Shown here piece by piece: positions 3,127 through 22,802 of a stretch of 64,000 bases of DNA. This DNA is from Acidobacteriota bacterium (lineage in GTDB: Bacteria; Zixibacteria; MSB-5A5; GN15; FEB-12). Each line of letters starts with the position of its first letter. The first letter of the stretch is position 1. Location: contig DATKXK010000011.1 in the NCBI GenBank assembly GCA_035529075.1, forward strand, positions 64,295-128,294, in the 5' to 3' direction. The position numbers and the translations under genes were made by a program. A model generated the notes under the pieces. It made no database searches, was not told where the DNA came from, and saw nothing but the letters and a program-made list of their open reading frames with translations.

Positions 3127-3828
3127 ATGTCACGTGGTAAAGCAGTCGTACTGCTCAGCGGTGGAATCGACTCTTCCACCACGCTGGCTGCGGCCGGCGC
3201 GGACGGGTACGAACTGTATGCGATCAGTTTTGATTACGGCCAGCGCCACCGGCTCGAACTTGAGTCGGCCGGGAAAATCGCCCTGGCTGTCGGCGTACAG
3301 AAGCACCTCGTGATGTCGGTCGACCTGGCGCTGATCGGCGGGTCGGCGCTCACCGACCAGATCGCCGTTCCCAAGAACCGTTCGCTCGATACCATCGGCT
3401 CCGACATTCCCATAACGTACGTTCCGGCCCGCAACACCATCTTCCTGTCCCTGGCCCTGGCCTGGGCCGAGGTCGCGGGCGCGCGGCACATCCTTATCGG
3501 CGCTAACGCCGTTGACTATTCCGGCTATCCGGATTGCCGGCCGGAATTCATCTACGCCTTTGAGTCCATGGCCAACCTGGCGACGCGGCGGGGAGTGGCC
3601 GGGGAGGGCATCGAGATCAGGGCGCCGCTTATGGAGTTGACGAAGGCCGAGATTATCAGGCGCGGCCTGGAGCTGGGGCTTGATTACGCCATGACCTTTA
3701 GCTGTTATGACCCGACGGATGACGGTCTGTCGTGCGGCGAGTGCGATAGTTGCCGGCTCAGGCACAGGGGGTTCCTCGATGCCGAGATCGCCGATCCCAC
3801 CAAATATGCGGTGACACCCCGGGTCTGA
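3127..3828 (+). CDS. queC: 7-cyano-7-deazaguanine synthase
   Basis: [10 protein letters not shown]-loop; C-terminal Zn cysteines CYDP...[10 protein letters not shown]. Confidence 0.95.
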
Positions 3829-3834
3829 GGCCGG

Positions 3835-4584
3835 ATGAAACGATCGGAACGCATTGTCCCCTGGCCAGGTCAGTCAGCCGGCAGGCTGCCGCTCACGGAG
3901 ATGTTCTATTCCGTTCAGGGGGAAGGCCGCTTCGCCGGGTTTCCGGCGCTCTTTCTCCGTTTCAAGTACTGCAATCTCGGGTGTGACTGGTGCGACGCGC
4001 GTTTCACCTGGGACCCCGATGCCATTGAGGCGGGCGAGCTGCTTGCTCCCGGCGACATCGCCGGGCGGGCGGGCCGTATGGTCGGGGAAAGGAAACTGAA
4101 CCCGGGGGGGCTCCATGTTGTCCTTACCGGCGGGGAGCCGATGCTGCATCAGCAAACCCTGTCGGCCCTGATCGCCCGTATGAATGCGGCCGGATTTGAC
4201 TTCTTTGAAATCGAGACCAACGGCACGCTGGTGCCGAGCAGGACGATGTGCGAGGCCATCTCGTGGTGGAACTGTTCGCCCAAGCTGGCCAACAACGGCC
4301 GACCGCAAGGAGAGAATATCGTCCCGGAGGCGTTGCGGGCGATTGCGGCCACCGGTCGCGCCGATTTCAAATTTGTCGTGTGCTCCCCCGATGACGTCGG
4401 CGAAATAGTCGAACAGTTCATGCCCCTTGTGCCCGCGGATCGTATTATATTGATGCCTGAAGGAACGTCGGCAACGGATCAACTCGAGGCGATGCCGTGG
4501 CTTCTTGACGAGTGCGCGCGGCACGGCTTCAAGTTCTCGCCCCGGCTCCATATTCTGGCCTGGGGGAACGAGCGAAGACGATAA
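3835..4584 (+). CDS. queE: 7-carboxy-7-deazaguanine synthase (radical SAM)
   Basis: MFYSVQGEG start region, CNLGCDWCD cluster motif; sits between queC and queD. Confidence 0.9.
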   Translation: MKRSERIVPWPGQSAGRLPLTEMFYSVQGEGRFAGFPALFLRFKYCNLGCDWCDARFTWDPDAIEAGELLAPGDIAGRAGRMVGERKLNPGGLHVVLTGGEPMLHQQTLSALIARMNAAGFDFFEIETNGTLVPSRTMCEAISWWNCSPKLANNGRPQGENIVPEALRAIAATGRADFKFVVCSPDDVGEIVEQFMPLVPADRIILMPEGTSATDQLEAMPWLLDECARHGFKFSPRLHILAWGNERRR

Positions 4585-4601
4585 CGGCGGGTAGGTAAAA
4601 C

Positions 4602-4961
4602 ATGCGCGTAAAACTGTCCAAGCAGTTTCATTTCGAGGCGTCGCATCGCCTGGATCATCTGCCTCCTGAACACCCCTGCCACGAACTGCACGGTCACAGC
4701 TACCGGGTGGAAGTCGAAGTGGCCGGCGAGGTCAGCGAAACCACCGGTTTTCTCATTGACTACCACGACCTCAAGCGCATCGTCCAGCCTGTGATTGACA
4801 GATTGGATCACAAGAATCTGAACGACGTTGACGGTCTCGAGTTGACCTCCACCGAGTACGTGTCCAGGTGGCTCTGGGAGCGGATCAAGCCCGGACTCCC
4901 GATCCTGAGCAGGATCACGGTCTACGAAACGGCCACCAGCAAGTGTGAGTACGAAGGCTGA
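4602..4961 (+). CDS. queD: 6-carboxy-5,6,7,8-tetrahydropterin synthase
   Basis: FHFEASHRL and HGHSYRVEV motifs, 119 aa. Confidence 0.92.
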   Translation: MRVKLSKQFHFEASHRLDHLPPEHPCHELHGHSYRVEVEVAGEVSETTGFLIDYHDLKRIVQPVIDRLDHKNLNDVDGLELTSTEYVSRWLWERIKPGLPILSRITVYETATSKCEYEG

Positions 4962-4967
4962 CGGCGT

Positions 4968-5366
4968 TCAACGCGTGTCGGCCGTGTATTCCCGAACGAT
5001 GGTCGTCTGAATCCCTCCCCGGGCGTGAAAGATCCCTTCCAGGCGTAGCCGACGCGGTTTGGCCGCCGCTACCACGTCCTCGGCCATCTTGTTGACCACG
5101 TTCTCGTGAAAGATGCCCTTGTTGCGGTAGGCCAGAGTGTACTCTTTGAGACTCTTCAGTTCGATGCAGTGCTGGTCCGGAACGTAGGTCAGGTGAAGCG
5201 TGGCAAAATCCGGCAGACCGGTCCTGGGGCAGACGCACGTGAATTCCGGGATCGCCATCCTGATCTCGTAGTCCCGGTCGGCGTAGATATTGCCGAATGT
5301 CTCGATTTCGGGCGTCTTCCAGTCCCGGATGTCGCCCTGCAGGTCTTCGTAGTTCGATTCGTTCAT
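4968..5366 (-). CDS. queF: NADPH-dependent 7-cyano-7-deazaguanine reductase (type I)
   Basis: EFTCVCPRTGLPDFATL catalytic-Cys region, IELKSLKEY, 132 aa; convergent with queD. Confidence 0.92.
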   Translation of the reverse strand: MNESNYEDLQGDIRDWKTPEIETFGNIYADRDYEIRMAIPEFTCVCPRTGLPDFATLHLTYVPDQHCIELKSLKEYTLAYRNKGIFHENVVNKMAEDVVAAAKPRRLRLEGIFHARGGIQTTIVREYTADTR

Positions 5367-5411: not shown

Positions 5412-6281
5412 TCACTCTTTCAGGTACACCGTCTTTGCTTTTCGTACCACCAGCCCATCCTTCTCAAGACCTGCGACGGCTCGTTCCACCTCGGCGGCTG
5501 ACCGGCTCAGAACGCGGGCAATCGTGCCCGTGCGGAGCTGTCTGCGCGTGGTCAGGCGGCGGATGATCTCACCGCGAATCTGGCGTATCGAACCATCGAA
5601 GGCCTTCTGTCGGGCCAGCGGCCTGACCGTGCCAAGCTGCCTGGGCAGCGCCAGGGCGCTATAATCCATCAAGGCATAATGCCACTCGCGGGCCTGCTTT
5701 CTTGGCAGCAGTTGCAGCGCCACAGACTCGAGCTGGCGGGGGGTTGTCGACGGAGGCAATTGCAACTCGTGGATCAGGACCCGGCGGATGTTGATGTCAA
5801 CCGCCACAAACGGTTTGTTGTAGGCGAAAATCGGAATGGCCCGCGACGTGTACGGGCCGATCCCGGGCAACCGGATCAGAGCAGCAGGGTCGTCAGGCAA
5901 GATGCCGCCGTGTCGAGCAATCACGACGCGAGCCATCTCCCTGAGGAAAAGCGCCCTCCGGTTGTATCCCAGCCCCGACCAGGCGGCCAGCAGTTGCCGG
6001 CTCGATGCCTCGGCCAGGGCGGACCAGGCGGGCCAGCGTGCAATCCAGCTGTCGTACCTGGGCACGACGCGTTCCACCTGCGTTTGCTGCAGCATGATTT
6101 CGGCAACCGCAATCCTGTACGGATCGCGCGTCTGGCGGAATGGCAGTGAACGTCCATGCTCCCGGTAAAAAGCCCGGATTTTGCGCCGAAAACTGTACAC
6201 TTTCTCTCTTGATATGGTCACGGGAGACGAGTATACGGCATACGGGGCCGACCGGCAAGACGTTGCGCCCTGGTTTGCCAT
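5412..6281 (-). CDS. HhH-GPD base-excision glycosylase (MutY/Nth family) with C-terminal winged-helix-like tail
   Basis: AEIMLQQTQV, WSGLGYNRRA, LPGIGPYTS hairpin-helix-hairpin. The start is uncertain; an alternative GTG at 6200 would leave a normal divergent intergenic region. Confidence 0.75.
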   Translation of the reverse strand: MANQGATSCRSAPYAVYSSPVTISREKVYSFRRKIRAFYREHGRSLPFRQTRDPYRIAVAEIMLQQTQVERVVPRYDSWIARWPAWSALAEASSRQLLAAWSGLGYNRRALFLREMARVVIARHGGILPDDPAALIRLPGIGPYTSRAIPIFAYNKPFVAVDINIRRVLIHELQLPPSTTPRQLESVALQLLPRKQAREWHYALMDYSALALPRQLGTVRPLARQKAFDGSIRQIRGEIIRRLTTRRQLRTGTIARVLSRSAAEVERAVAGLEKDGLVVRKAKTVYLKE

Positions 6282-7973: not shown

Positions 7974-8363
7974 ATGATGAAAGTAGTTTTACTACTGGCG
8001 GTCCTGCTGGTATTCGTGCTCGCCCCGTGCGGAGACCTTGTCTCGAAGGACAAGCCGTGGGATGATGGGAACGACGGCGGACCTAGCGACGGCGGGCCCG
8101 AAGGGGAGGACCATCCCTGGGGAGGCGAAAACCAGACGCCCGGTGATATCTGGAATCGGCTCAGCCCACTGGAAAGCGCCACCGGTGTCTTTGTGGTCGA
8201 TGCCTTGTACCGCCTGCCGGGCATCGATACGTATCTCGAATCCCGTTTGTTCTGGGTCAGAACCGACCGGCCTTACCGCGACATTCAGAAAAAAAATCGG
8301 GGCGTCACCGACGTTCCGAGGCAGGAGAATTCATCAATCGGGAGCTACGGGGTAGAAAAGTGA
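7974..8363 (+). CDS. Small exported Gly/Asp/Asn-rich protein, unknown function
   Basis: Hydrophobic signal MMKVVLLLAVLLVFVLAPCG, good RBS. Its stop overlaps the GTG start of the downstream activator (GTGA). Confidence 0.6.
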   Translation: MMKVVLLLAVLLVFVLAPCGDLVSKDKPWDDGNDGGPSDGGPEGEDHPWGGENQTPGDIWNRLSPLESATGVFVVDALYRLPGIDTYLESRLFWVRTDRPYRDIQKKNRGVTDVPRQENSSIGSYGVEK

Positions 8364-10639
8364 AGCAGAAGAGCAATAACACAGGCACGGAGTTCTGCGA
8401 TGCGGTAGCGACGTACATATCGTCGCTGGCCCAAAAGCGGGACTGCGCCGGTGTTGTCAGGTACTACGAGGCACATCGTAGTCTCATTGACGACGCCGGT
8501 GGATCCTGGGCGGGCGCGATCCTGCTCAAGGTGTCCGACGCCTGGGCTTCCCTCACTGACTACCCTGCAGCCTTGAAAACGGCTCGTGTCGCACAGGCCA
8601 AGGCAGCCGAAGACGGAGACAGCGTCCTTCTTGCTGAGATCTTCGTCACTCTCGGAGGCATCCTGCGCGACATGGGACAGGTGAAGGAAGCGCAAAAGGC
8701 GTTTCAGGACGCGGAATCAATCTTCCGCCGTAACGACTGTCTCGAAGGTCAGAGCCGCGCGCTCAATCTCCTGGCCGGACTGTACTTCCGGCAGGCGGAC
8801 TATCGCAGCGCCCTGCGGGTACTCATGGACGCAGTGGAGATTGCGCGCAAACTCGACGACAAGCAGAAGCTGGCCTTCATGATGGGAAACATCGGCCGGG
8901 TTTACACCTTTATGGGCGATCTGGCCGAAGCCGAGAAGCACCTGACCATCAACGTCGATCTCTCCACGGAGCTTCGGGACGAGTTGGAGGTGGCGCGTGC
9001 GTATCTGTCGCTCGGTTATATTCACATCCAACAAGCCGCCTATGACAAGGCGGAGCGGGCGCTGGCGCAGGCATATCCGCGGATCATTACGGCCGCGAGC
9101 CGGCGGGACGAGGTCATTTACATGACCTACCTCGGTGAACTGCGATACCGCACCGGCCGCAACGAGGAATCCGGCGCAGTTCTCGAGAAGGCGCTGGTCA
9201 TGGCGGAGGGCATCGCGCCGGGGACGACCCTGGTCGGCCGTGTCCTCAGGCACCTGGCTGAGTTGAACTTGCGCCTGGACAACTACCGTCTGGTCCGGAA
9301 GTTTGCCGCCCAGTCCATGGTCATAATGGAAAAGACCTCAAACAAGGTCGAAACCGGCGCGCTGCTGCGTATAAAGGCGCAGGTGGCCCAGGCGCACGGT
9401 CACAAAAAGGACGCCGTCCGGCTCTACAAAAAGGCGATCGACGTGCTGGATGAATCCGGTGTTCGCTTTGAGAGGGCTGAAGCTCTGGTGGCGGCGGGCA
9501 AATGCGAACTGTTCGGTCAGCGGCAGCGCATGACCTACCTGTTCCGTGCCGAGGAGTACTATTCCCGGTGTCGGATGACTCAGCGGCTTGACAAGGTCAG
9601 CCGGTTGATCAGCTCTCTTGGCTGCACCAAGGCGGGCCCGGTAACTCCAACGAGAACCGGGACGACGGGCGGGGTCGACTTTCTGACGGCCTCACCGGTG
9701 ATTCAACGTTTCAAGGCACAGTTGCCGATGTTCGGCCATTCCGACCTTCCGCTCATGCTCACCGGTGAGACCGGTGTCGGCAAGGATCATCTGGCCCGGT
9801 ACTTCCACTCCCTGGTTCGGCCCGGCGGACCGTTTGTGGCCATCAACTGCGCTTCGGTTCCCGAGACGCTCCTTGAATCGGAGTTGTTCGGCTACAGCCG
9901 GGGAGCTTTCACGGGTGCCGACGCAAGCAAGTGCGGTCTGTTCGTAGCCGCAAACGGCGGTGTCCTGATGCTCGATGAGATCGGCGACATGCCCCTGAAG
10001 CTTCAGGCCAAGCTGCTTGGAGTTCTGGAGCGGCGGAAAGTCATTCCTCTCGGTTCTACGACCGAGGTTGCCCTTGACGTCATCCTGGTCGCGGCCACGA
10101 ACAAGAACCTCGAAGCCATGGTCGAAGACGGTACGTTCCGGCGCGATCTGTACTACCGGCTCAGCGGCATTACCTTCCGCATCCCGCCGTTACGAGAGCG
10201 CCGGGAGGACATTGCACTTCTGCTGAAGCACTTTCTGGTAGAGCATGATCTTCTGCCGGAGGACCTGGCACCGCCTGCCGAACTGGTCAGGCTGTTTCTG
10301 GCCTATGATTGGCCGGGTAATATCCGCGAACTTGACAACAAAGTCAAACGACTCCAGGTCATGTCGCAAATGGTGGCTGAGGGAGACCTGGTAGAGTTGT
10401 ACCGTTCGCTGTTCCCCCAAAGCGCCGACCTGGACGAATCCTCGGACGGCGAGAGTCTTTTCCAGCGCGTGGAGCAGTTTGAGCGGAAACTGATCACGGA
10501 GGCGCTTCTGGCGGCACGCGGCAACAAGAGCGAGGCCGCACGCCTGCTGGGCGTGCACGAGGCGACGGTGCGCACCAAGCTGAAGCGGTACGGCATTTCG
10601 GTACCGCCCACGGTCTTAAGAGGAGGTGCACCCAGCTAA
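8360..10639 (+). CDS. Sigma-54-dependent transcriptional activator (EBP) with an N-terminal TPR region of about 440 aa
   Basis: Walker A GETGVGKD, GAFTGA loop, ESELFGY, DEIGDM, Fis-type HTH GNKSEAARLLGVHEATV. N-terminus is TPR-like and no receiver domain was recognised. Confidence 0.9.
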   Translation: MKQKSNNTGTEFCDAVATYISSLAQKRDCAGVVRYYEAHRSLIDDAGGSWAGAILLKVSDAWASLTDYPAALKTARVAQAKAAEDGDSVLLAEIFVTLGGILRDMGQVKEAQKAFQDAESIFRRNDCLEGQSRALNLLAGLYFRQADYRSALRVLMDAVEIARKLDDKQKLAFMMGNIGRVYTFMGDLAEAEKHLTINVDLSTELRDELEVARAYLSLGYIHIQQAAYDKAERALAQAYPRIITAASRRDEVIYMTYLGELRYRTGRNEESGAVLEKALVMAEGIAPGTTLVGRVLRHLAELNLRLDNYRLVRKFAAQSMVIMEKTSNKVETGALLRIKAQVAQAHGHKKDAVRLYKKAIDVLDESGVRFERAEALVAAGKCELFGQRQRMTYLFRAEEYYSRCRMTQRLDKVSRLISSLGCTKAGPVTPTRTGTTGGVDFLTASPVIQRFKAQLPMFGHSDLPLMLTGETGVGKDHLARYFHSLVRPGGPFVAINCASVPETLLESELFGYSRGAFTGADASKCGLFVAANGGVLMLDEIGDMPLKLQAKLLGVLERRKVIPLGSTTEVALDVILVAATNKNLEAMVEDGTFRRDLYYRLSGITFRIPPLRERREDIALLLKHFLVEHDLLPEDLAPPAELVRLFLAYDWPGNIRELDNKVKRLQVMSQMVAEGDLVELYRSLFPQSADLDESSDGESLFQRVEQFERKLITEALLAARGNKSEAARLLGVHEATVRTKLKRYGISVPPTVLRGGAPS

Positions 10640-10786
10640 GCGATGCCACCGGACAGTGATCCGGGCGGATCACGCCTGACCTGCCGGAGCGTGTGATTGT
10701 GATAATGTGTCTGTTACAATGACGCTCCGTGAGGCCCGGTGAGAGTTATCGTTCGGTCGTACGAATCTCGCACACACTCCTTGGTT

Positions 10787-10827
10787 GCGGTAAGCGTTTG
10801 GTTTTTCAGGCGCTTACCGCTTTTTTT
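10787..10827 (+). terminator. Rho-independent terminator downstream of the EBP gene
   Basis: GCGGTAAGCG ... CGCTTACCGC 10-bp stem followed by TTTTTTT. Confidence 0.7.
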
Positions 10828-10941
10828 GTGCCGTCATTCGTATGATTGTACGGATTTGAACACCGCCGCCGGCCGCATAATTGACACCGAATGCCAGTAC
10901 GTTCATGCCGGGCAACACGATAGAGGTGCGTACCAGACCGA

Positions 10942-10957
10942 CGGCACGCGCCTTGCT
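10942..10957 (+). promoter_or_regulatory. Candidate sigma-54 (-24/-12) promoter
   Basis: CGGCAC-GCGCC-TTGCT matches TGGCAC-N5-TTGCW with exact GG/GC spacing; about 300 nt downstream of the EBP gene. Confidence 0.55.
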
Positions 10958-10966
10958 CTCATTCTG

Positions 10967-11072
10967 ATTGTCATTTTTACTCCTGAGCACTGTTGCCAGT
11001 GCTTGGTAGGTCCTCTTTTCTTTGGTGTGTGGCCGCCCGCAATTGAGGGGATTGCGGGCGGCGCGCTTTTTT
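10967..11072 (+). ncRNA. Candidate sigma-54-dependent small RNA or terminated leader (about 105 nt; 5' end inferred)
   Basis: Between the sigma-54 promoter and a strong terminator. Contains hairpin GCACTG-TTGC-CAGTGC and the C/U tract CCTCTTTTCTTTGG. No ORF with an RBS. Confidence 0.4.
11032..11072 (+). terminator. Rho-independent terminator
   Basis: GCCGCCCGCAAT-tgagggg-ATTGCGGGCGGC 12-bp stem, then GCGC TTTTTT. Confidence 0.7.
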
Positions 11073-11130
11073 GGCTCACACGATACGTTTTAAGTTGTGT
11101 TTTGAGAACCGGTTGCCCTTCTTTGACGCT

Positions 11131-11790
11131 ATGTCGCGGCCTGCCCTGGGATTGATAGAAACGAGGGGACTCGCCGGAGCACTGGCGGCAACCCGCGCGG
11201 CCACTGACGCCGGTCAGGTCGTTATTGCCTCCCTGGAGCAAACCGATGCCGGGATTGTCACAGTCCGTTTCGAGGGAGACTGGCAGGCAGTCCAGCAGGC
11301 GGTCGAGGCGGGAGCACGGGCCGCTGAAGCTCTGCACGACCTGATTTCCATGCACGTGATCCCTCGCACGGACAACGGTCTCAGTCCCATCCTGCCGTAC
11401 GGACGGTTCGTGGCCAGGTATCGCTCCGAGGAAGACAGGGGGCCGTCACCTCCGCGAACGCCGTCGCTGAAACCTGCCTCACGGCCGGAGCACCGGGAGA
11501 TCAAGCTGCCCCCCGCACAGCCCGCGCCCGCTGTACCGACAGTTGCGCGCGTGGCGCCGCCGCCGAAACCACCGGTCACGCCAGAGCCCGCCGTTATCCC
11601 CGCGCCCGCCGTCCAACCGACTTCCGCCCCGCAGCCGCTTAGTCTTGACGAACTGGCAGAGATGCCGGTGGTCAAACTCCGCAAGTATGCACGGACAATC
11701 AGGAACCTTCCGATACAGGGCCGCCAGATCTCCAAGGCGAACAAGGAGACTCTGCTGGAAGCTATCCGAAGCGTCCGCGTGCCCGAGTAG
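11131..11790 (+). CDS. BMC-H (PduA/EutM-type) shell-domain protein with a Pro-rich linker and a Rho_N/SAP-like C-terminal domain
   Basis: ALGLIETRGL...GIVTVRFEGDWQAVQQAVEAG...HVIPR...ILP aligns along the PduA fold. The C-terminal roughly 140 aa are PxP-rich, then LSLDELAEMPVVKLRKYAR... Confidence 0.85.
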   Translation: MSRPALGLIETRGLAGALAATRAATDAGQVVIASLEQTDAGIVTVRFEGDWQAVQQAVEAGARAAEALHDLISMHVIPRTDNGLSPILPYGRFVARYRSEEDRGPSPPRTPSLKPASRPEHREIKLPPAQPAPAVPTVARVAPPPKPPVTPEPAVIPAPAVQPTSAPQPLSLDELAEMPVVKLRKYARTIRNLPIQGRQISKANKETLLEAIRSVRVPE

Positions 11791-12138
11791 ATAACTTCGC
11801 GCCACCGGTCTCCATAATCTGCAATCGATCCGTCAAGTCTTCTCTCTTCCGCCGGATCGATCAACCCGGCGGGGCACGCACTCACCGACGAACCGATATC
11901 CTGCTCTGATGCGAGCTTCAGTGCGTTCAAGCTGGCGGATGATGCGGGACCGTGACGAGGTAATGGGCGGGTCGGAGTTCCCTGCGCAGGGGGCGTTTTC
12001 GGTTGATTTATCGGGTCTTACGGTATATATATGACCTCTGAGAAACCGTCGGCAAGTGTTCAACAGGGGTCGGCAAGGTAAGTGTCCGGTCCGTCGGCAT
12101 ACCCGCCGGACGGGCCTGCGCAGGAGGGCGGTGCAGTC

Positions 12139-13092
12139 ATGGAGAAGATCCTCATCACCGGTGCACTGGGCCAGATCGGCTCGGAACTGACCGTGGTGTT
12201 GCGCCAGCGGTACGGGCGGGAGAACGTCGTGGCCACGGATATCCGGATGCCGAGCGACATCAGCCTGCGCGATTCCGGTCCGTTTGAATTCCTGGACGTC
12301 CTTGATCCGCATCACATCACGAGGGTCATGCAGATCTACAAGGCGGACACCATCTACCATCTTGCGGCGATTCTGTCGGCGGTGGGCGAAACCCGCCCGA
12401 ATGTCGCCTGGCAGGTGAACGTGAACGGTCTGTACAACATCCTCGAGGCGGCGCGCCAGTACGACTGCGCCCTGTTTGTCCCCAGTTCGATAGGCGCTTT
12501 CGGCAAGTCCACGCCGCTGGACAACACGCCGCAGGACACGATTCAGCGTCCCGATACGATCTACGGGGTCACCAAGGTGGCCGGAGAGCTTGTTTGCGAC
12601 TACTATCACAAGCGCTTTGGACTGGACACGCGCGGGCTTCGCTTCCCGGGACTGATCTCGCACCAGACCGACCCCGGCGGCGGAACCACCGACTACGCCG
12701 TTGAGATCTTTTACGACGCCATCCGGCATCGGGAATTCACCTGTTACCTGCGGGCTGATACGTCTCTGGACATGATGTACATGCCGGACGCCATCAGGGC
12801 GATGATTGACCTGATGGAGGCCGACCCGTCCCGGCTGGTGCACCGCAATGCCTTCAACGTCACGGCGATGAATTTTACCCCGGCGCAACTGGCCGACGAA
12901 ATCCGGAAACACATCCCGGAGTTTGAGATTAAATACCAGGTAGACCCGGAGCGACAGGAGATCGCGGACAGCTGGCCTAACAACATGGACGATTCGGCCG
13001 CCCGCAGGGAATGGGGTTGGCGTCACGAGTACGATCTTCCCAGGATGACATCAGACATGCTGGACGTCTTGTCCCGGAAGCTGGCGGGGTGA
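12139..13092 (+). CDS. tdh: L-threonine 3-dehydrogenase, NAD-dependent epimerase/SDR type
   Basis: ITGALGQIGSEL Rossmann motif, GGGTTDYAVEIFY, MMYMPDAI, ADSWP. The ATG at 12139 follows a GGAGGG RBS. Confidence 0.9.
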   Translation: MEKILITGALGQIGSELTVVLRQRYGRENVVATDIRMPSDISLRDSGPFEFLDVLDPHHITRVMQIYKADTIYHLAAILSAVGETRPNVAWQVNVNGLYNILEAARQYDCALFVPSSIGAFGKSTPLDNTPQDTIQRPDTIYGVTKVAGELVCDYYHKRFGLDTRGLRFPGLISHQTDPGGGTTDYAVEIFYDAIRHREFTCYLRADTSLDMMYMPDAIRAMIDLMEADPSRLVHRNAFNVTAMNFTPAQLADEIRKHIPEFEIKYQVDPERQEIADSWPNNMDDSAARREWGWRHEYDLPRMTSDMLDVLSRKLAG

Positions 13093-13128
13093 GTCGGCCC
13101 GTCGCACCGTTCGCCTCGAGGCCACAGG

Positions 13129-13503
13129 ATGATTTTCGGCATCGGCATAGACGACGTGGACGTGGAAAGACTCAGGCGGCGTCTCGGTGATACCGGCGGT
13201 CTCAAGGAGAGAGTGTTCACGCCGCGGGAGATTGAGTACTGCGAGTCCAGGCGAAGCAGCGCGCAGAACTTCGCGGCGCGCTTTGCCGCCAAAGAGGCGT
13301 TCATGAAGGCAGTCGGCACCGGCTGGCGGGACGGGTTGAAGTTTACCGACGTTGAGGTGGTTAACAACGAGAAAGGGAAGCCTGAACTTGTTCTTCACGG
13401 TGTGGCGAAACGTCTTGTCGACGAGAGCGGCATCACCAACGTCCAGGTATCCCTGTCACATATAAGGGATGTTGCCAGTGCCGTTGTCGCACTGGAGAAG
13501 TAA
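13129..13503 (+). CDS. acpS: Holo-[acyl-carrier-protein] synthase (4'-phosphopantetheinyl transferase)
   Basis: MIFGIGIDDVDVERL, FAAKEAFMKA, SLSH; 124 aa. Confidence 0.9.
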   Translation: MIFGIGIDDVDVERLRRRLGDTGGLKERVFTPREIEYCESRRSSAQNFAARFAAKEAFMKAVGTGWRDGLKFTDVEVVNNEKGKPELVLHGVAKRLVDESGITNVQVSLSHIRDVASAVVALEK

Positions 13504-13517
13504 AGGGAAAATGGAGA

Positions 13518-15224
13518 ATGACTAACATCGGGTCCTACGCCGAACGAGTCAAAAACTTCGATTGGTCAATTTCCGAGAAAGAGCTGGCGTTTAAGGACGG
13601 AAACGTCATCAACATCGGCTGGTACTGCTCCGACCGGATCTGCCAGTTGGGCATGGCGGACAAGCCGGCCCTGCTCTGGGAGAACGCGGCGGGACGGGAG
13701 AAGCGTTATACCTACGACGACGTCAGGCTGACCACCAACACCATCGGCGCGTTTCTCAGGGGCCTGGGGATCGGCGACGGGGACAGGGTGTGTCTTTTCA
13801 TGGACAAAATCCCCGAGCTGTACCTCGGGTTTCTGGGGGTGCTCAAGATCGGGGCCATCGCCCAGCCGCTCTTCTCGGCCTTCGGTGACGAGGCGTTGCG
13901 CATCCGGCTCAGTGACGCCGGGACCGCGGCGATCATCACCCAGCGCAAGCACGTCGCCAAGGTCCGGAAGATGCTCGACCAGGTGCCCCATCTCAGGCAC
14001 GTTATTCTTGTCGATTACGACGGGCGCAAGCCGCTTCGGGATCGGGAGGTTGCCTTTTCCCTGGAACAGGCCGAGCCCGTGCAGGAGTTGGAGATCTTCC
14101 CTACCAAGGCGGAGTCACCGTCCGTGCTTCACTATACGTCCGGAACGACCGGGCAGCCCAAAGGCGTCAAGCACGTTCACTATGCGCTGATCGCCCAGTA
14201 CCTGTCCACCAAGTGGGTTCTGGACCTGCAGCCGGACGACGTATACTGGTGCACGGCCGACCCGGGCTGGGTGACGGGTACGTCCTACGGCATTATCGGT
14301 CCCTGGAGCCTGGGCGTCACGCAGTGCGTCCTGGATGCGGGTTTCTCGGCGGAGGCCTGGTACCGCTTCATTGAAAAGCACAAGGTCACGGTCTGGTATT
14401 CCGCGCCGACGGCCATTCGCTCGCTCATGAAGGCGGGCGATGACCTGGTGCGGAAGTTTGACCTTTCCTCGCTGCGGCACCTGGCCAGCGTAGGCGAGCC
14501 GCTCAACGCGGAGGCGGTGGTCTGGTCGAAGAACGTGTATGGGCATCCCTTTCTCGATACGTACTGGCAGACCGAAACCGGTTCGATCATGCTTACGAAC
14601 TTCCCCGGCATGGAGATCAAGCCCGGTTCCATGGGTAAGGCTTTTCCGGGCATAACGGCAACCGTTCTGGACACCAAAACCTACGAGCCGATCACGGAGC
14701 CGGGCCGGGTCGGGCTGATCGCTTTCAAACCGGGCTGGCCGTCGATGATGCGGGCGTACTGGAACAACGAGGCCACGTACCAGGCCAAGTTCAGAAACGG
14801 CTGGTACCTTTCCGGTGACCGTTCGAGCATCGACAAGGACGGGTACTTCTGGTTTACGGGGCGTGACGACGACGTCATCAATACCGCCGGTCACCTGGTG
14901 AGTCCGTTCGAGGTGGAGTCGGCTCTGCTGGAACATGAGGCGGTCGCGGAGTCCGCGGTGGTGGCCAAGCCCGATGAAGTAAACATGGAAGTCGTGAAGG
15001 CGTTCGTGACGCTCAAGCCGGGGTTTGACGCCGGTGCCGACCTCGAGTTGAACATCATGAACTTCATTCGCAAGAAGCTCTCCCCGCTGGCCATGCCCCA
15101 GGAAATCGAGTACGTTGATTCGCTGCCCAAGACAAGGAGCGGCAAGATCATGCGGCGGCTGCTGCACGCGCGGGAGTGGGGCGAAGAGATCGGTGACATC
15201 TCCACGCTCGAGGATGACGAGTAG
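13518..15224 (+). CDS. Adenylate-forming acyl/acetyl ligase, Bacillus AcsA-like
   Basis: YTSGTTGQPKG, WCTADPGWVTG, YWQTETGS, PKTRSGKIMRR; collinear with the 570-aa short acetyl-CoA synthetases. Confidence 0.85.
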   Translation: MTNIGSYAERVKNFDWSISEKELAFKDGNVINIGWYCSDRICQLGMADKPALLWENAAGREKRYTYDDVRLTTNTIGAFLRGLGIGDGDRVCLFMDKIPELYLGFLGVLKIGAIAQPLFSAFGDEALRIRLSDAGTAAIITQRKHVAKVRKMLDQVPHLRHVILVDYDGRKPLRDREVAFSLEQAEPVQELEIFPTKAESPSVLHYTSGTTGQPKGVKHVHYALIAQYLSTKWVLDLQPDDVYWCTADPGWVTGTSYGIIGPWSLGVTQCVLDAGFSAEAWYRFIEKHKVTVWYSAPTAIRSLMKAGDDLVRKFDLSSLRHLASVGEPLNAEAVVWSKNVYGHPFLDTYWQTETGSIMLTNFPGMEIKPGSMGKAFPGITATVLDTKTYEPITEPGRVGLIAFKPGWPSMMRAYWNNEATYQAKFRNGWYLSGDRSSIDKDGYFWFTGRDDDVINTAGHLVSPFEVESALLEHEAVAESAVVAKPDEVNMEVVKAFVTLKPGFDAGADLELNIMNFIRKKLSPLAMPQEIEYVDSLPKTRSGKIMRRLLHAREWGEEIGDISTLEDDE

Positions 15225-15254
15225 ACGACGGATAGAAGTGTATAGGAGACGGTT

Positions 15255-15500
15255 ATGGAAGACGCGAAGGACGTGGTCCTCAATTACATCATCGAGGAGT
15301 ATCTTGAAGAAGAGGATGACGAGATAACCTACGACACGCCGCTTATTTCCGGTGGCATCGTCGATTCCTTCTCCATGGTTTCCCTCAAGCGGTTCCTGGA
15401 GAATAAGTACCAGATAAGCATTCCCGACGACAAGGCCACGCCGGAGGCGTTTGACACCGTCAACAGCATCGTGGCGCTGGTGAAATCCTTCCTCGGATAG
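15255..15500 (+). CDS. Stand-alone acyl/peptidyl carrier protein
   Basis: 81 aa, acidic, phosphopantetheine-site-like GGIVDSFSMVSL. Confidence 0.8.
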   Translation: MEDAKDVVLNYIIEEYLEEEDDEITYDTPLISGGIVDSFSMVSLKRFLENKYQISIPDDKATPEAFDTVNSIVALVKSFLG

Positions 15501-15622
15501 GCGTGCGGACTGCCGGCTCGCAGTCAGGCGGACCGCGCCGAGTTTGGAATCCGGTCGGCGCCCGAGCTGTGGGACCCGAGGGCCGGGGCGAAGAGACCGA
15601 GTGTTGCATGAGGAGTTAAACA

Positions 15623-16870
15623 ATGGGTTACAGTGACAAAGTCAGGGCAATATACCAGGAACAGATCAAGGAAATTCAGGACGCCGGGCTGTTCAAGCAG
15701 GAACGGTTCATCCATTCCTCCCAGGCGGCGGACATCGAGGTCGAATTCCCCATCGGCTCGTCGTTGAAAAAAGTCATCAACATGTGTGCCAACAACTACC
15801 TGGGGCTTTCCAGCCACCCGGAGGTCATCAAGGCGGCGCACGACGGGCTGGAGACGCGCGGCTACGGCATGTCTTCCGTCCGGTTCATCTGCGGCACGCA
15901 GGACATTCACCATGAACTCGAGCGGAAAGTGAGCGAGTTCCTGGGCACGGAAGATACCATCCTGTTTCCCTCCTGCATGGACGCCAACGCCGGCGTGTTC
16001 GAGGCCATCCTCGGCAGCGACGACGTTATGATCTCGGATCGTCTCGTGCACGCCTCGATCATCGACGGGATGCGGCTGTGCAGTGCCGTGCACGACACCT
16101 TCAAGCACTCCAACATGCAGCACCTGGAATCAAAATTGCAACTCCACGCCGACAAGCGATTCAAGGTGGTCATTACCGACGGCGTGTTCTCCATGGACGG
16201 CGACACGGCCAAACTCGACGAGATCGTCGAGCTGTGCGAGAAGTACGACGCCATGGTGTTCGTGGATGACTCCCACGCATCGGGTTTCATCGGCCGGACC
16301 GGCAGGGGCACTCACGAAAAATGTGGCGTCATGGGCAAAATCGACATCATCACCACAACCTTCGGTAAAGCCCTCGGCGGTGCCTCGGGGGGCTGCGTCT
16401 CCGGGCGTCGCGAACTGGTGGAACTGTGCCGCCAGAAGGCGCGGCCCTACCTGTTTTCCAACACCATCGCCCCGGTGGTTGTCTCGGGCGTGCTCAAAGT
16501 GCTCGATATCCTCTCCCGGAGCACCGAGCGGCGCGACAAGCTGGAAGCCAACACGGCGTACTGGCGCAAAGGCCTGGCCGAGGCCGGCTTCGTTCTCAAG
16601 GAGGGCGACACGCCCATCGTCCCTGTCATGCTGTTCAACGCCAAACTCTCGCAGGATTTCTCCCAGGACCTGTACAACGAGGGAATCTATGCCATGGGTT
16701 TCTTCTTCCCCGTGGTTCCCCAGGGCCAGGCGAGAATACGAACGCAGATTTCAGCCGCCCACGAAACACATCACCTCGACAAAGCACTCGAGGCGTTCAT
16801 CAAAGTCGGCAGGAAATACGACATCCTCGGCAAGACGAAGCAGGAGATCATCGAGAAATACGGAATGTAG
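15623..16870 (+). CDS. kbl: 2-amino-3-ketobutyrate CoA ligase (glycine C-acetyltransferase), alpha-oxoamine synthase family
   Basis: CANNYLGLS, VRFICGTQ, DDSHASGF, TFGKALGG (PLP Lys), FFFPVVPQGQARIRTQ. Confidence 0.92.
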   Translation: MGYSDKVRAIYQEQIKEIQDAGLFKQERFIHSSQAADIEVEFPIGSSLKKVINMCANNYLGLSSHPEVIKAAHDGLETRGYGMSSVRFICGTQDIHHELERKVSEFLGTEDTILFPSCMDANAGVFEAILGSDDVMISDRLVHASIIDGMRLCSAVHDTFKHSNMQHLESKLQLHADKRFKVVITDGVFSMDGDTAKLDEIVELCEKYDAMVFVDDSHASGFIGRTGRGTHEKCGVMGKIDIITTTFGKALGGASGGCVSGRRELVELCRQKARPYLFSNTIAPVVVSGVLKVLDILSRSTERRDKLEANTAYWRKGLAEAGFVLKEGDTPIVPVMLFNAKLSQDFSQDLYNEGIYAMGFFFPVVPQGQARIRTQISAAHETHHLDKALEAFIKVGRKYDILGKTKQEIIEKYGM

Positions 16871-16919
16871 ACCGGCGAGTTGTTAGGCTGGGGCCCCTAA
16901 TCCTGAATAGGTGGTAGTA

Positions 16920-17651
16920 ATGGACAGCCCGTACGAGAACTATAACGCGGTTATCCCGCGTTTAGAGGCTAGCTTCTGGCTCACCGTTGGAGCCATCGGG
17001 GCTGCTCACGAAGCAAGAGCGGAGGAGGCCGCGGAGTTGGAACGCAAACTTGATCCGGCTGCGGAGTTGCAGCGCAAACTAGATCCGGCTGTTGAGGAAG
17101 AGGATTTGAGACAGCGGGTTGCGCTACTGTCGAGAACACTCCTTGTATACGGCGTGGTAATCCTGGAAGCAATGGTGAAGGACTATGCACGTTATCTTGT
17201 ATTCAACAAGCGCCAGCCCGCCACCTGTCGAAAAATGCAGGACAGCATGCTTCCGGTGGAACCCACTTTTTCCGACAAAATGAAGGATGCGTCCGCTCTC
17301 AAGCATCAGCAATGGCAGAAGAAACTAATAGGGTGGATAAAGCAGGTTGGCCAACAAGTTGGCGGTGATCAGGGACGGGACTCGCGCTTTCTCGCTGTCA
17401 GGGAGGCCATTATCAAGCGATGCATGGACTTTAGTCACTGGACTATCGTGTACAAATGCTGCATTATCCGGAACCTTGAGGTCCATAATAATGGGCTTAT
17501 GAACGAAAGGAATCACAAGTGCGCGCCTATTTGTGATATAGGTCAAAAGCCCAGTTGGGACTGGGAACTGGTCAGAGACCTGTTCACGGCGCTGGATCTC
17601 TTGAACGTTCATCTCAGTGAGACAGACGTTATACAAACGGGCAGTATATGA
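16920..17651 (+). CDS. Hypothetical protein with an Rx4H (HEPN-like) motif and a tandem 10-aa repeat
   Basis: AGGTGG RBS before the ATG at 16920. Motif IIRNLEVHNNG. The stop overlaps the SDR start (ATGA). Visibly lower GC: lines hand-counted at about 47-55%. Confidence 0.6.
   Translation: MDSPYENYNAVIPRLEASFWLTVGAIGAAHEARAEEAAELERKLDPAAELQRKLDPAVEEEDLRQRVALLSRTLLVYGVVILEAMVKDYARYLVFNKRQPATCRKMQDSMLPVEPTFSDKMKDASALKHQQWQKKLIGWIKQVGQQVGGDQGRDSRFLAVREAIIKRCMDFSHWTIVYKCCIIRNLEVHNNGLMNERNHKCAPICDIGQKPSWDWELVRDLFTALDLLNVHLSETDVIQTGSI
17031..17090. repeat. 2 x 30-bp in-frame tandem repeat inside the 16920 gene
   Basis: gcggagttggaacgcaaacttgatccggct / gcggagttgcagcgcaaactagatccggct (27/30), encoding AELERKLDPA / AELQRKLDPA. 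Confidence 0.9.
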
Positions 17652-18379
17652 GATCACTCAAAGACAAGGTTGTCGTCATCACCGGGGCCTCGCGCGGTAT
17701 CGGTGCCGCCATCGCACGGGTCATGGCCGGCCAGGAGGCCCAGCTGGTTCTGTGCGGGCGGAACAAGAAGAACCTCCAGAACGTGGCCTCATCGCTCAAC
17801 CTCTCGCGCGGCAACTTCGTGACCGTCACCGCCGACGTCTCCAAAGCATCGGGCATGGCCCGGATAGTCAGGACGGCGTATGACAAGTTCGGCCGGGTGG
17901 ACGTTTTCGTCAACAACGCCGGGGTGGGTATCGGCAAGCTGTTCATCAGGACCACGGAGAAAGAGTTCGATACCGTTATCAATACCAACCTGAAGTCGGT
18001 CTTTTACTGTTTCAAGGAGCTTCTGCCGCGCCTTCAGAAACAGGGCGGGGGCCAGATCATCAACGTTTCCAGCATGGCGGCCAAGCAGGGGACGCCCGGC
18101 CTGTCGGTCTACTCCGCTTCCAAGGCGGCGGTGAACGTGCTCAGCGAGGCGGTGGCCGGCGAGGTACGCAACGAGAACATCAAGATTTGCGTCCTGGCGC
18201 CGGCCTCGGTCGAAACCGGGTTCATGTCCAATTTGGCCCCGCGTGCCCGGGCTTCCAGCAAGGCGGCTCGCAAGCTCGCGGTGGAGGAAGTAGCCGACGC
18301 GGTTCTGTTTCTTGCCCGGCAGAACGAAAACGCGTGGGTATCGCTGGCCGAGATCCGGCCACTGTTCGTCAGAAAGTAA
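17648..18379 (+). CDS. Short-chain dehydrogenase/reductase (classical SDR)
   Basis: TGASRGIG cofactor motif, NNAG, YSASKAAV catalytic motif. Confidence 0.9.
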   Translation: MRSLKDKVVVITGASRGIGAAIARVMAGQEAQLVLCGRNKKNLQNVASSLNLSRGNFVTVTADVSKASGMARIVRTAYDKFGRVDVFVNNAGVGIGKLFIRTTEKEFDTVINTNLKSVFYCFKELLPRLQKQGGGQIINVSSMAAKQGTPGLSVYSASKAAVNVLSEAVAGEVRNENIKICVLAPASVETGFMSNLAPRARASSKAARKLAVEEVADAVLFLARQNENAWVSLAEIRPLFVRK

Positions 18380-18840: not shown

Positions 18841-19854
18841 ATGGCCAGACATACAGTGACCCTTATACCCGGGGACGGCATTGGTCCGGAAGTCACGCAA
18901 GCCGCCGTCAGGGTGATCGAAGCTGCCGGTGTGGATATCGAGTGGGACGTGCAGGATGCGGGGCTGGCGGCAATTCAGAAGTATGGCGTGTCGGTGCCGG
19001 ATTCGCTGCTTGATTCCATTCGCGAAAACAAGGTGGCGCTCAAGGGTCCACTGACAACTCTTGTCGGTAAAGGGTTCAAATCCGCCAACGTCACTCTTCG
19101 GCAGACCCTTGATCTTTACGTCAACTTGCGCCCGGTCAAGACGATAGGGGGAGTTCCAAGCCGCTTTGAGAAGGTTGATCTGGTTATTGTTCGTGAGAAT
19201 ACCGAGGATTTGTATTCAGGCATTGAAAGCGTTGTGCAACCGGGAGTGACGCAGGCGATCAAGATTATCACCGAGAGGGCATCCGAACGCATTGCCCGCT
19301 GGGCGTTTGAGTACGCCCGCCGGCACGGCCGCCGCAAGATCACTCTGGTGCACAAAGCCAACATCATGAAGATATCGGACGGGCTGTTCCTTCGCACCTT
19401 TCAGAGGATCGCAGTCGAATATCCGGATATAACCGCCGAGGACAAGATCGTCGATGCTCTGGCCATGCACCTCGTGATGGACCCGGGCAGGTTCGACGTG
19501 CTGTTGCTCGGCAACCTTTTCGGCGATATCGTATCTGACCTTGCGGCCGGTCTTGTCGGCGGACTGGGCGTCGTGCCCGGCGCCAATATAGGCGAAAAGT
19601 ACGCCGTTTTCGAGGCCGTGCACGGCACCGCTCCCGATATCGCGGGGAAAAACCTGGCCAACCCCACGGCCGTCCTGTTCTCGGCTCTGCTCCTGTTACG
19701 TCACCTGGGCGAGGACGAGGCGGCGGACCGTATCTGGAAGGCCGTGGTGCTCACGCTCGCCATGGGGCACTGCATGACCGGAGACCTGGGCGGCACTTGC
19801 TCCACCACGGAGTTTACGGAGGCAATCGTTAATGAAATCAGGGGTCGAGGGTAA
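18841..19854 (+). CDS. Isocitrate/isopropylmalate dehydrogenase family protein (NAD-IDH-like, 337 aa)
   Basis: IPGDGIGPEV, LKGPLTT, NLRP, ENTEDLYSG, GNLFGDI.SD, HGTAPDIAG. Confidence 0.85.
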   Translation: MARHTVTLIPGDGIGPEVTQAAVRVIEAAGVDIEWDVQDAGLAAIQKYGVSVPDSLLDSIRENKVALKGPLTTLVGKGFKSANVTLRQTLDLYVNLRPVKTIGGVPSRFEKVDLVIVRENTEDLYSGIESVVQPGVTQAIKIITERASERIARWAFEYARRHGRRKITLVHKANIMKISDGLFLRTFQRIAVEYPDITAEDKIVDALAMHLVMDPGRFDVLLLGNLFGDIVSDLAAGLVGGLGVVPGANIGEKYAVFEAVHGTAPDIAGKNLANPTAVLFSALLLLRHLGEDEAADRIWKAVVLTLAMGHCMTGDLGGTCSTTEFTEAIVNEIRGRG

Positions 19855-19905
19855 ACCGCCCCGTGGCGGCAAGAAACGGACTCGGGAAATCAGAGGAGAC
19901 TTGCC

Positions 19906-21881: not shown

Positions 21882-21887
21882 GGCGGC

Positions 21888-22769: not shown

Positions 22770-22802
22770 AGATATCAGTCGGCCGGGGCCCGGCCAAGTT
22801 TT

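Follow-up and report, generated by a model that had tools for sequence, protein, structure and literature searches.

A gene for a bacterial microcompartment (BMC) shell protein of the BMC-H type, carrying a long C-terminal tail, lies at nt 11131–11790 on the plus strand of a 64,000-nt stretch of contig DATKXK010000011.1 (assembly GCA_035529075.1, Acidobacteriota bacterium; GTDB lineage Zixibacteria). This whole stretch is referred to as the window, and positions are counted from its first nucleotide. The gene reads from an ATG through 219 codons to a stop. Its product consists of a BMC-H domain, a 69-residue linker and a 52-residue helical end domain. The gene is preceded on the same strand by a sigma-54 activator gene, a sigma-54 promoter and a conserved structured RNA.

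The start codon was set by homolog alignment. In an alignment of 32 sequences, all homologs share the start position, with the motif M-x-R-P-A-L-G-L-I-E-T. The public database holds a form of 239 residues that begins at TTG 11071 (P0001, 100% identical, 'MAG TPA: BMC domain-containing protein [Acidobacteriota bacterium]'). This TTG falls within the T-run of the terminator of the upstream RNA, and the 20 extra codons have no counterpart in any homolog. Because the TTG is inside the terminator T-run and the homologs all begin at the ATG position, the 219-residue product can be considered correct, and the public annotation appears to start 20 codons too early.

Residues 1–95 (nt 11131–11415, plus strand) form the BMC-H domain with its C-terminal helix, as delimited by Pfam PF00936, alignment with PDB chains and an AlphaFold2 (AF2) model. 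The PF00936 (BMC) match covers residues 5–79, with an E-value of 3.4e-17 and 62.6 bits against a cut-off of 24.5. Residues 3–93 are collinear with the solved chains of PduA, EutM, CsoS1, CcmK and the BMC-H of Haliangium ochraceum (HO). The BMC domain is single and not permuted. AF2 gives the order beta-alpha-beta-beta-alpha-beta with a predicted local distance difference test (pLDDT) score above 95 there, and 89–98 over residues 1–80. A single-domain BMC-H protein is encoded at 11131–11790. The original prediction, made from the DNA letters, had proposed this reading frame and a PduA/EutM hexamer fold along residues 1–90; the frame and every peptide string that it quoted are present, and the fold holds on the Pfam match and the structural alignment.

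The residues at the hexamer-hexamer interface are non-canonical. TDAG, with D26, replaces the K of the KAAN motif, and PRTD replaces PRPH. In the subgroup of relatives to which the window belongs, the interface K is retained in 18 of 24 sequences, while N29 and H81 are not retained. By its interface residues the window protein falls outside the 'basal' BMC-H, a criterion that defines 'basal' BMC-H and not the whole BMC-H family. The tailed BMC-H is predicted to form hexamers that tile a microcompartment shell.

The linker, residues 99–167 (nt 11425–11631, plus strand), was recognized by its composition, by alignment gaps and in the AF2 model. It is 32% proline, has no predicted secondary structure and is modeled with pLDDT 50–73. 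Both its length and its sequence vary freely among homologs, and the proteins of the family range from 146 to 487 residues. The C-terminal helical domain, residues 168–219 (nt 11632–11787, plus strand), was delimited by conservation, AF2, Foldseek and Pfam matches of homologs. It is the best-conserved part of the protein in the 32-sequence alignment, with L183, R184, R188, L193, G197, R198, I200, S201, A203, N204 and L208 invariant in 32 of 32. The tail is basic, with 10 K+R versus 6 D+E, and the near-invariant K205 stands beside the invariant R184, R188 and R198. Modeled alone, it folds into four short helices with pLDDT 88.9. The original prediction had described an extension of about 140 residues with a Pro-rich spacer. 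The spacer and the long extension are real, and the size was overstated, the extension past the BMC fold being 129 residues. It had also allowed that the extension might be absent or unconserved in orthologs; the tail is conserved, and near-invariant, in the homologs.

The tail is widespread. A protein search over 5.8 billion proteins gave 181 matches, and among the best 120 of the 181 nearly all span 97–100% of the query at 42–60% identity. With a tail-only profile and one genome per species, the tail was confirmed in 173 species genomes. In 80 of 88 loci a BMC domain shares the open reading frame (ORF) with it, and the remaining 8 are contig ends or frameshifts. HMMER against 1.84 billion representatives retrieved 663 clusters (50% identity) at E ≤ 1e-3, with the tail always C-terminal. 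Ten tail proteins of odd length were looked at individually; 8 of them have an N-terminal BMC domain, with linkers of up to ~330 residues, and no other recognizable domain was found in the ten, apart from an HNH match below threshold in a spurious 2313-residue hit. The tail, found almost always on BMC proteins, thus appears to be a module specific to BMC-H proteins. That the extension might be an artefact, from a missed stop, a frameshift or an assembly chimera, could be suspected from the low complexity of the linker and from nothing else. The identical protein on 8 independently assembled contigs rules this out; more than 120 full-length homologs have the same architecture, and no part of the protein is better conserved than the tail. 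The probability of an artefact is vanishingly small.

The fold class of the tail is seen mainly through its relatives. When 20 homologous tails were scanned singly, 12 matched Pfam Rho_N (PF07498), with a best E-value of 8e-5, and 2 matched SAP (PF02037). In Foldseek searches against the PDB, the N-terminal helix bundle of E. coli Rho came top; four Rho chains, including 9ff7_A, 6wa8_B and 9gcu_A, superpose on 43–46 residues of the tail with TM-scores of 0.58–0.61, root mean square deviations of 2.0–2.7 Å, probabilities of up to 0.87 and E-values of at least 0.64. Such E-values are expected for a query of 52 residues. Among the predicted viral structures of BFVD, the named matches are 'SAP domain' and 'Rho termination factor N-terminal domain' proteins, all with E > 0.4. 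These results weakly suggest that the tail belongs to the Rho_N/SAP helix-extended-helix class at the level of family and fold class, and for the window sequence in particular the assignment is weak. The Rho_N/SAP type named in the original prediction is thus upheld by the homologs and by the top Foldseek matches, and not by the window tail itself, which has no PF07498 or SAP match. When the tail profile was compared with that of Rho residues 1–69, just 16 columns aligned, at a probability of 0.9%, and the result is not used as evidence. A sequence search of the PDB with the tail profile returned only chance lysozyme matches, with E > 0.7.

The genomic context of related genes places the protein among shell components. 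A Zixibacteria-type group of loci (designated L001–L032 and others; mostly labelled Zixibacteria, GN15) has one tailed BMC-H per locus in a stable order: a Wzy_C-family membrane protein, an ORF of 110–133 residues, a TPR-domain sigma-54 enhancer-binding protein (bEBP) of ~755 residues, a gap of 360–700 bp, and the tailed BMC-H. In six related loci (L018, L027, L034, L059, L089 and L090) a gene for BMC-P (PF03319; E 1e-26 in L027) lies directly 3′ of the tailed gene. In L027, L089 and L090 the array continues, in L089 and L090 after a membrane peptide of ~50 residues, with a PduS-like protein, which has Complex1_51K, RnfC_N and 4Fe-4S domains, and a PduT-like tandem-BMC protein of 183 residues. 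In L018, L034 and L059 a weak BMC match of PduT size is found instead. The TPR-bEBP gene is immediately upstream of the tailed gene in L018, L089 and L090. The tailed gene is the first gene, and encodes the only BMC-H, of this compact operon in the sister Zixibacteria, and its product must be the main hexamer of the operon-type shell. Since these relatives stand beside BMC-P, PduS-like and PduT-like genes, the tailed protein is most likely a shell component.

Two other features of such loci were observed. A single-pass membrane peptide of ~50 residues is encoded after the shell genes in L005 (10680–10829), L006 (10751–10906), L089 (10521–10667) and L090 (10344–10502). A K/R-W-Y/M motif precedes its hydrophobic helix in three of the four and is not evident in L006. 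No equivalent peptide is found 3′ of the window gene (11790–12140). Separately, ACT-domain and DUF711 proteins follow the PduT-like gene in L027 (12497–16333), L089 (13082–16564) and L090 (12482–16023), and are possible candidates for cargo or regulator. According to the catalogue of BMC loci discussed next, an ACT-domain protein is the sole non-shell component of FRAG4 (PMC8217296).

The tailed BMC-H family is not new. It was listed, uncharacterised, for the FRAG1 type in the 2021 BMC catalogue (Sutter et al. 2021, Nat Commun 12:3809, Supplementary Data 2, PMC8217296), and the novelty assumed by the original prediction does not stand. As described in the catalogue text, FRAG1 comprises 57 loci, mostly of Ignavibacteria, the other taxa being Kryptonia, Bacteroidetes, Chlorobi and Rhodothermaeota. 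The tailed BMC-H pairs with a second BMC-H that bears the standard interface residues, and a BMC-P triplet and often a PduS/PduT pair are located elsewhere in the genome. The catalogue further describes FRAG shell genes as spread over up to six genomic places, and reports no enzymes and no encapsulation peptides for them (PMC8217296). In its trees, the BMC-P and the PduT-like protein listed for Zixibacteria RBG_16_53_22 have locus tags far apart and are labelled 'fragmented (sat) (omitted)' (PMC8217296). A full-text literature search for FRAG1 returned only Sutter et al. 2021 and its preprint.

Our searches retrieved the same family. With the tail profile, tblastn found genes of Ignavibacteria, Melioribacter, Rhodothermaceae and Bacteroidetes at E-values of 1e-9 to 1e-12, all fused to a BMC domain, and the profile also retrieves genes of Kapaibacterium (Chlorobi-related). 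A plain BMC-H of ~95 residues followed by the tailed BMC-H forms a pair in loci of Ignavibacteria, Melioribacter (including the cultured Melioribacter sp. Ez-97), Rhodothermaceae, KSB1 and Calditrichaceae. The plain partner was seen in most Ignavibacteria-type loci (39 partners), where the pair sits among housekeeping genes in the order RelA/SpoT, RuvX, pair, YbbR, Tmk. By taxonomy and gene pairing, these Ignavibacteria-type genes would be the FRAG1 proteins of the catalogue, and the window protein appears to be an ortholog of the FRAG1 tailed BMC-H.

In the window itself the gene stands alone. The part of the contig covered here, made up of the 64-kb window with ~10 kb upstream and ~7.5 kb downstream, is ~81 kb of 239,650 bp. 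No aldehyde dehydrogenase or PTAC was found among the large ORFs checked in the window and flanks, and a search with EutN, CcmL, PduN and CsoS4A queries found no BMC-P on this part of the contig. The gene is thus locally orphan, as the original prediction had it. In the loci of the window's subgroup, BMC-P is never adjacent to the tailed gene. The BMC domain of the window protein is just 41–46% identical to those of the operon-type proteins, whereas the operon-type BMC-P proteins are 77–87% identical among themselves.

These observations raise the alternative that the other shell genes have been lost in the window lineage and that the protein has a shell-free role, as free hexamers, sheets or tubes that scaffold the nucleoid, RNA or membrane. 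The original prediction leaned to such a non-organelle role. The orphan position over ~81 kb, the missing adjacent BMC-P of the subgroup, the diverged interface (K to D, PRPH to PRTD) and the low BMC identity are all in keeping with it. So is the absence of the subgroup's long contigs from the best 120 of 206 BMC-P homologs; this comparison, however, covers only part of one contig per genome in addition to being limited to the best 120. Scattered shell genes, moreover, are what FRAG-type genomes have, in up to six places, and RBG_16_53_22 shows a distant BMC-P and PduT-like protein in the catalogue trees (PMC8217296). Operon-type and orphan-type loci conserve the tail, the bEBP and the RNA equally, a pattern that speaks for a single common function. 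A shell-free role in the window lineage is therefore considered unlikely. The membership of the family in the FRAG1 catalogue and the position of the tailed gene beside BMC-P, PduS-like and PduT-like genes in sister genomes speak against the non-organelle leaning, and they favour what had been named as its alternative, a satellite or dispersed shell gene, a reading that is probable for the window genome. The most economical reading is that the window gene encodes the same shell component after break-up of the operon.

The structure of BMC-H proteins suggests where the tail would be displayed. In solved shells (H. ochraceum, carboxysome mini-shell), the termini of BMC-H lie on the concave face, which faces the cytosol. 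With the concave face outward, each hexamer would display six tethered basic helix-extended-helix domains in the cytosol, outside the organelle. Binding of nucleic acid is suggested by the fold class together with the invariant arginines and lysine, and is the most likely activity of the tail. The tail domains may serve as a nucleoid tether for positioning or inheritance of the compartment, or may bind RNA; or they may dock a cytosolic partner.

The last of these can be put as an alternative of its own, in which the tail is a protein-docking module on the shell surface, with the PduS-like protein, the small membrane peptide or a positioning ATPase as partner. The near confinement of the tail to BMC-H proteins is as expected for an organelle-specific interaction module, and with no recognizable encapsulation peptides reported for FRAG genomes in the catalogue (PMC8217296), other recruitment devices are plausible. 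The ~50-residue membrane peptide is co-encoded in L005, L006, L089 and L090. Yet none of the candidate partners recurs in every context: the membrane peptide is missing from the window, and the Ignavibacteria-type loci sit amid housekeeping genes. The Rho_N/SAP class is typically associated with nucleic acid, and the invariant residues of the tail are mostly basic or small. Docking is accordingly a possible role, on the less likely side, and nucleic-acid binding is preferred.

The region upstream of the gene encodes its probable regulatory circuit. The bEBP gene (nt 8360–10639, plus strand) encodes 759 residues with Pfam TPR_12, TPR_MalT, Sigma54_activat and HTH_8 domains, and NCBIfam recognizes only the generic bEBP core. 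With L027 as the one exception, Zixibacteria-type loci whose upstream DNA can be used have a bEBP gene 360–650 bp before the BMC gene; in L059 it is at −1.8 kb. L023 had seemed to be a locus without the bEBP, and was dropped as such, for a run of N marks an assembly gap there. The start of the bEBP gene is overlapped by a gene call for a predicted lipoprotein of 129 residues (nt 7974–8363, plus strand), in which a lipobox-like LAPC can be read; this protein has no Pfam or NCBIfam match, and its place is taken in relatives by the ORF of 110–133 residues.

Between the bEBP and BMC genes, a sigma-54 promoter with GGCAC at −24 and TTGCT at −12 lies at 10943–10957 (plus strand). It is the sole match to GGCAC-N5-TTGCW in the 64 kb. 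The GG and TTG of the promoter are invariant in 21 loci, and a conserved RNA block begins 12–13 nt downstream. This block, at 10968–11082 (plus strand), is a structured RNA of ~113 nt that was recognized by the 21-locus alignment and covariation, and is a candidate sigma-54-dependent small RNA (sRNA). It starts with GUCAUUUUUACUCCU, followed by hairpin 1, an invariant single strand GGUAGGUCCUCUUUUCUUUGGUG, a terminator hairpin whose GAGGGGA loop is conserved, and a U-run. The terminator stem has 11–13 bp and is GC-rich, and the U-run follows it in most loci. In the window, the terminator scan matches 11032–11062, the intrinsic terminator spans 11032–11072, and the RNA ends 49 nt before the ATG.

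The secondary structure is well conserved. Across the 21 loci, 95.8% of the base-pair cells are paired, compared with 33–45% in slid controls (RNAalifold, pair counts). Eleven pairs show compensatory changes, and none of 500 shuffles reaches the observed values. The minimum free energy is −49.4 kcal/mol, with a z-score of −4.3. The RNA has no match in Rfam 15 at E ≤ 1. Every Zixibacteria-type locus for which upstream DNA is available has this RNA. A metagenome scan seeded with 19 nt of the RNA gave 22 contigs, 11 of them with the full RNA. In all 11, the tailed BMC-H is directly downstream on the same strand, and the bEBP is upstream wherever the sequence allows. The ~113-nt RNA is previously undescribed and strictly linked to the tailed BMC-H, and it is probably part of the regulatory circuit of this gene.

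The original prediction had suggested that the BMC gene itself might be under sigma-54 control; direct control of this kind finds no support. As read here, the sigma-54 promoter most likely makes a discrete small RNA, separate from the BMC mRNA, with its terminator ahead of the ATG, and the BMC gene most likely has a sigma-70-type promoter of its own. The candidate in the window, TTGTGT-17 nt-CTTCTT at 11095–11123 (plus strand), ends 7 nt before the ATG. In most relatives, by eye, a TTGnnT-N16–18-TATnnT element is placed with its −10 ending 6–8 nt from the ATG. Such a position of the −10 element would give a leaderless or near-leaderless BMC mRNA.

A different arrangement can be imagined, in which transcription from the sigma-54 promoter runs on into the BMC gene, with the RNA as the 5′ leader of this gene and the hairpin as a conditional terminator (attenuator). 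The RNA is always upstream on the same strand, as a leader would be, and the gap between its end and the ATG, of poorly conserved sequence, is a tight 65–76 nt in 17 of the 21 loci where it was measured; the weak sigma-70-like promoter of the window also suits a leader. Against this, the hairpin in most loci is a strong one, with an 11–13-bp GC-rich stem and a U-run, and no alternative anti-terminator pairing was identified. A second terminator-like hairpin is found in L006, L010 and L089, and these three together with L090 have 170–300 extra nt before the BMC gene. In L059 a gene on the opposite strand intervenes between the RNA and the BMC gene. Most relatives, besides, have a good −35/−10 pair placed for a leaderless start. 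A leader is thus distinctly unlikely, and separate transcription of the sRNA and the BMC mRNA is the preferred explanation.

Two other ideas about the RNA were tried and rejected. The invariant UUGGUAGGUCC complements the codons for G-L-I-E of the BMC gene, which would allow pairing of the sRNA with the BMC mRNA. The duplex energies are no better than those of shuffles (mean z −0.26), and the complementarity is independent of codon choice and equal in lineages that lack the RNA (9.5 vs 10.1 of 11 positions); it was rejected as evidence. A reading of the conserved block on the minus strand, as AGGAGTAAAAATG, was rejected as well, since the ORF downstream of it has 23 residues and falls in a region that is not conserved, and since the sigma-54 promoter faces the opposite way.

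Upstream of the sigma-54 promoter, a pattern search with conservation identified two palindromes, TCGT(A/T)-N6-TACG(A/G), at 10749–10764 and 10838–10853 (plus strand). The region is conserved in 5 aligned loci and in 24 distinct loci by nhmmer. From their positions ~100 and ~190 bp upstream of the promoter, the palindromes would be enhancer sites for the bEBP. Between them, and 3′ of the bEBP stop codon, the terminator scan found a near-invariant hairpin with a T-run at 10787–10828 (CTCCTTGGTTGCGGTAAGCG...CGCTTACCGCTTTTTTT), whose stem is kept by sequence and not by covariation. It could be the terminator of the bEBP gene, a 3′-UTR-derived RNA that shares CUCCUUGGU with the sRNA, or a site acting at the DNA level. 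A third near-match, to TCGTA-N6-TACGA, was noticed at 6052–6067 (plus strand), between an HhH-GPD glycosylase gene on the minus strand and the Wzy_C gene on the plus strand; no sigma-54 promoter match accompanies it.

Taken together, we favour the reading that the protein is a shell component with tethered tail domains, whose gene has been dispersed from the shell operon, has its own promoter and is accompanied by a separate sRNA; this reading as a whole is probable, with ample room for doubt. The tailed BMC-H would form hexamers that tile the shell and show their tail domains outside. In the window genome, the gene would have been separated from the other shell genes, and the residues at the hexamer-hexamer interface would have drifted. 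The BMC gene would be transcribed from the sigma-70-type promoter, and immediately upstream the TPR-type sigma-54 activator would drive the ~113-nt sRNA.

Several observations weigh against this proposal. No second BMC domain and no BMC-P exist in the ~81 kb of the contig, and among the best 120 of 206 BMC-P homologs (query, the BMC-P of L018) none falls on the contig of the window or on any other long contig of its subgroup; the contigs compared are of 1.41 Mb, 854 kb, 240 kb, 236 kb and 132 kb. D26 and PRTD at the hexamer-hexamer interface make the tiling competence of the window protein uncertain. Its own tail is without any Rho_N or SAP match in Pfam at E ≤ 10, and every Foldseek E-value for the tail exceeds 0.4. 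The outward orientation of the tail and its binding of nucleic acid are both inferred. The −10 element of the window (CTTCTT) is degenerate, and a consensus promoter scan of the window finds none.

Other gene groups surround the locus. Downstream, a cluster at 12139–18379 (plus strand) encodes an NAD-dependent epimerase/dehydrogenase, a phosphopantetheinyl transferase (ACPS), an acyl-AMP ligase, an acyl carrier protein, a class-I/II aminotransferase (alpha-oxoamine-synthase-like), an unknown protein of 243 residues and a short-chain dehydrogenase. It resembles clusters for amino-lipid or sphingolipid-type synthesis, and many Zixibacteria-type loci keep it in synteny with the BMC gene. The epimerase and aminotransferase genes are direct neighbours in some loci, in a Tdh/Kbl-like manner. 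A queuosine-precursor cluster at 3127–5366 (QueC, a radical-SAM QueE-like protein, PTPS/QueD and QueF) is unrelated housekeeping. At 20949–24176 (minus strand) the window encodes a DUF6599 protein and a DUF3485/EpsI-family protein, and L090 has EpsI and the exosortase EpsH at 19324–20321. With these exosortase/PEP-CTERM-type genes and the nearby Wzy_C, cell-envelope functions recur around the tailed BMC-H locus.

Few bacterial organelles are as poorly understood as the FRAG-type microcompartments, which have no known cargo, no encapsulation peptides and scattered genes. The present analysis goes beyond the one-line remark of the catalogue in describing the tail as a BMC-specific module that is apparently of Rho_N/SAP class and hangs on a long proline tether. 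It adds a minimal Zixibacterial shell operon of BMC-H, BMC-P, PduS and PduT, in which the tailed protein is the only hexamer, and which comes with a dedicated TPR sigma-54 activator and an undescribed, covarying small RNA. It also adds what would be a drifted, stranded copy in the window lineage. The binding of DNA or RNA by the tail, the positioning of the compartment and the signal of the activator offer handles on the function of the FRAG organelle. To a BMC specialist the protein family itself will come as no surprise; what is new is the regulatory RNA, together with the possible shell-free offshoot. In the boldest form of such an offshoot, the tailed BMC-H of the window's subgroup has escaped the shell operon, has a changed tiling interface and is now a free hexameric platform with six Rho_N/SAP-like domains, coupled to the strictly co-inherited sRNA, for example as the ring-shaped RNA-binding partner of this sRNA or as a nucleoid-associated scaffold. 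This claim is very unlikely; if true, it would mean that a microcompartment shell protein has been exapted for nucleic-acid biology.

The system can be compared with several known ones. Like the FRAG1 proteins, the window protein has a large C-terminal extension (129 residues in the window) with a homologous tail, and in both cases the shell genes are scattered and come without a known signature enzyme or function. In contrast to FRAG1, no second BMC ORF occurs in the window or in any Zixibacteria-type locus, and the interface residues of the window protein have diverged. The window belongs to the Zixibacteria-type branch, which the catalogue text leaves unclassified. Its gene is flanked by the TPR-bEBP and the sigma-54 RNA, neither of which is mentioned in that text. 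The operon-type loci of Zixibacteria have a single BMC-P; the BMC-P triplet of FRAG1 is described there as lying elsewhere in the genome.

The catalogue text terms the C-terminal extension of FRAG1 'analogous to EutK' (PMC8217296). EutK is a BMC-H protein of ethanolamine utilisation with a C-terminal helix-turn-helix suggestive of nucleic-acid binding, and no role has been established for it (PMC5821096). In both proteins a small helical domain that hints at nucleic-acid binding comes after a BMC-H domain. The NCBIfam EutK model, however, covers the BMC part alone (residues 5–83, model positions 4–82 of 166, 35.8 bits vs a cut-off of 218), and no EutK chain is among the 48 Foldseek PDB matches of the tail. 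No specific NCBIfam family was matched. The tail is not homologous to the C-terminal domain of EutK. The linker of the tailed BMC-H is also much longer and Pro-rich, and EutK, unlike the window protein, is encoded within a complete eut operon.

The tail may share the small helical fold of the Rho_N and SAP domains. It differs from them in a longer inter-helix loop with an invariant G-R-x-I-S-x-A-N-K motif. Unlike Rho, the tailed BMC-H has no adjoining OB-fold RNA-binding domain.

The regulatory region has parallels in LuxO/Qrr, CbrB/CrcZ and GlrR/GlmY, in which the bEBP genes adjoin their sigma-54-dependent sRNA targets. The window shares with these the activator gene, the upstream palindromes, the −24/−12 promoter and a short RNA with an intrinsic terminator. 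The window RNA has no sequence or Rfam relationship to their RNAs, and its activator has a TPR sensor at the N-terminus in place of a receiver domain. What sets the window RNA apart from all three is its strict linkage to a microcompartment shell gene.

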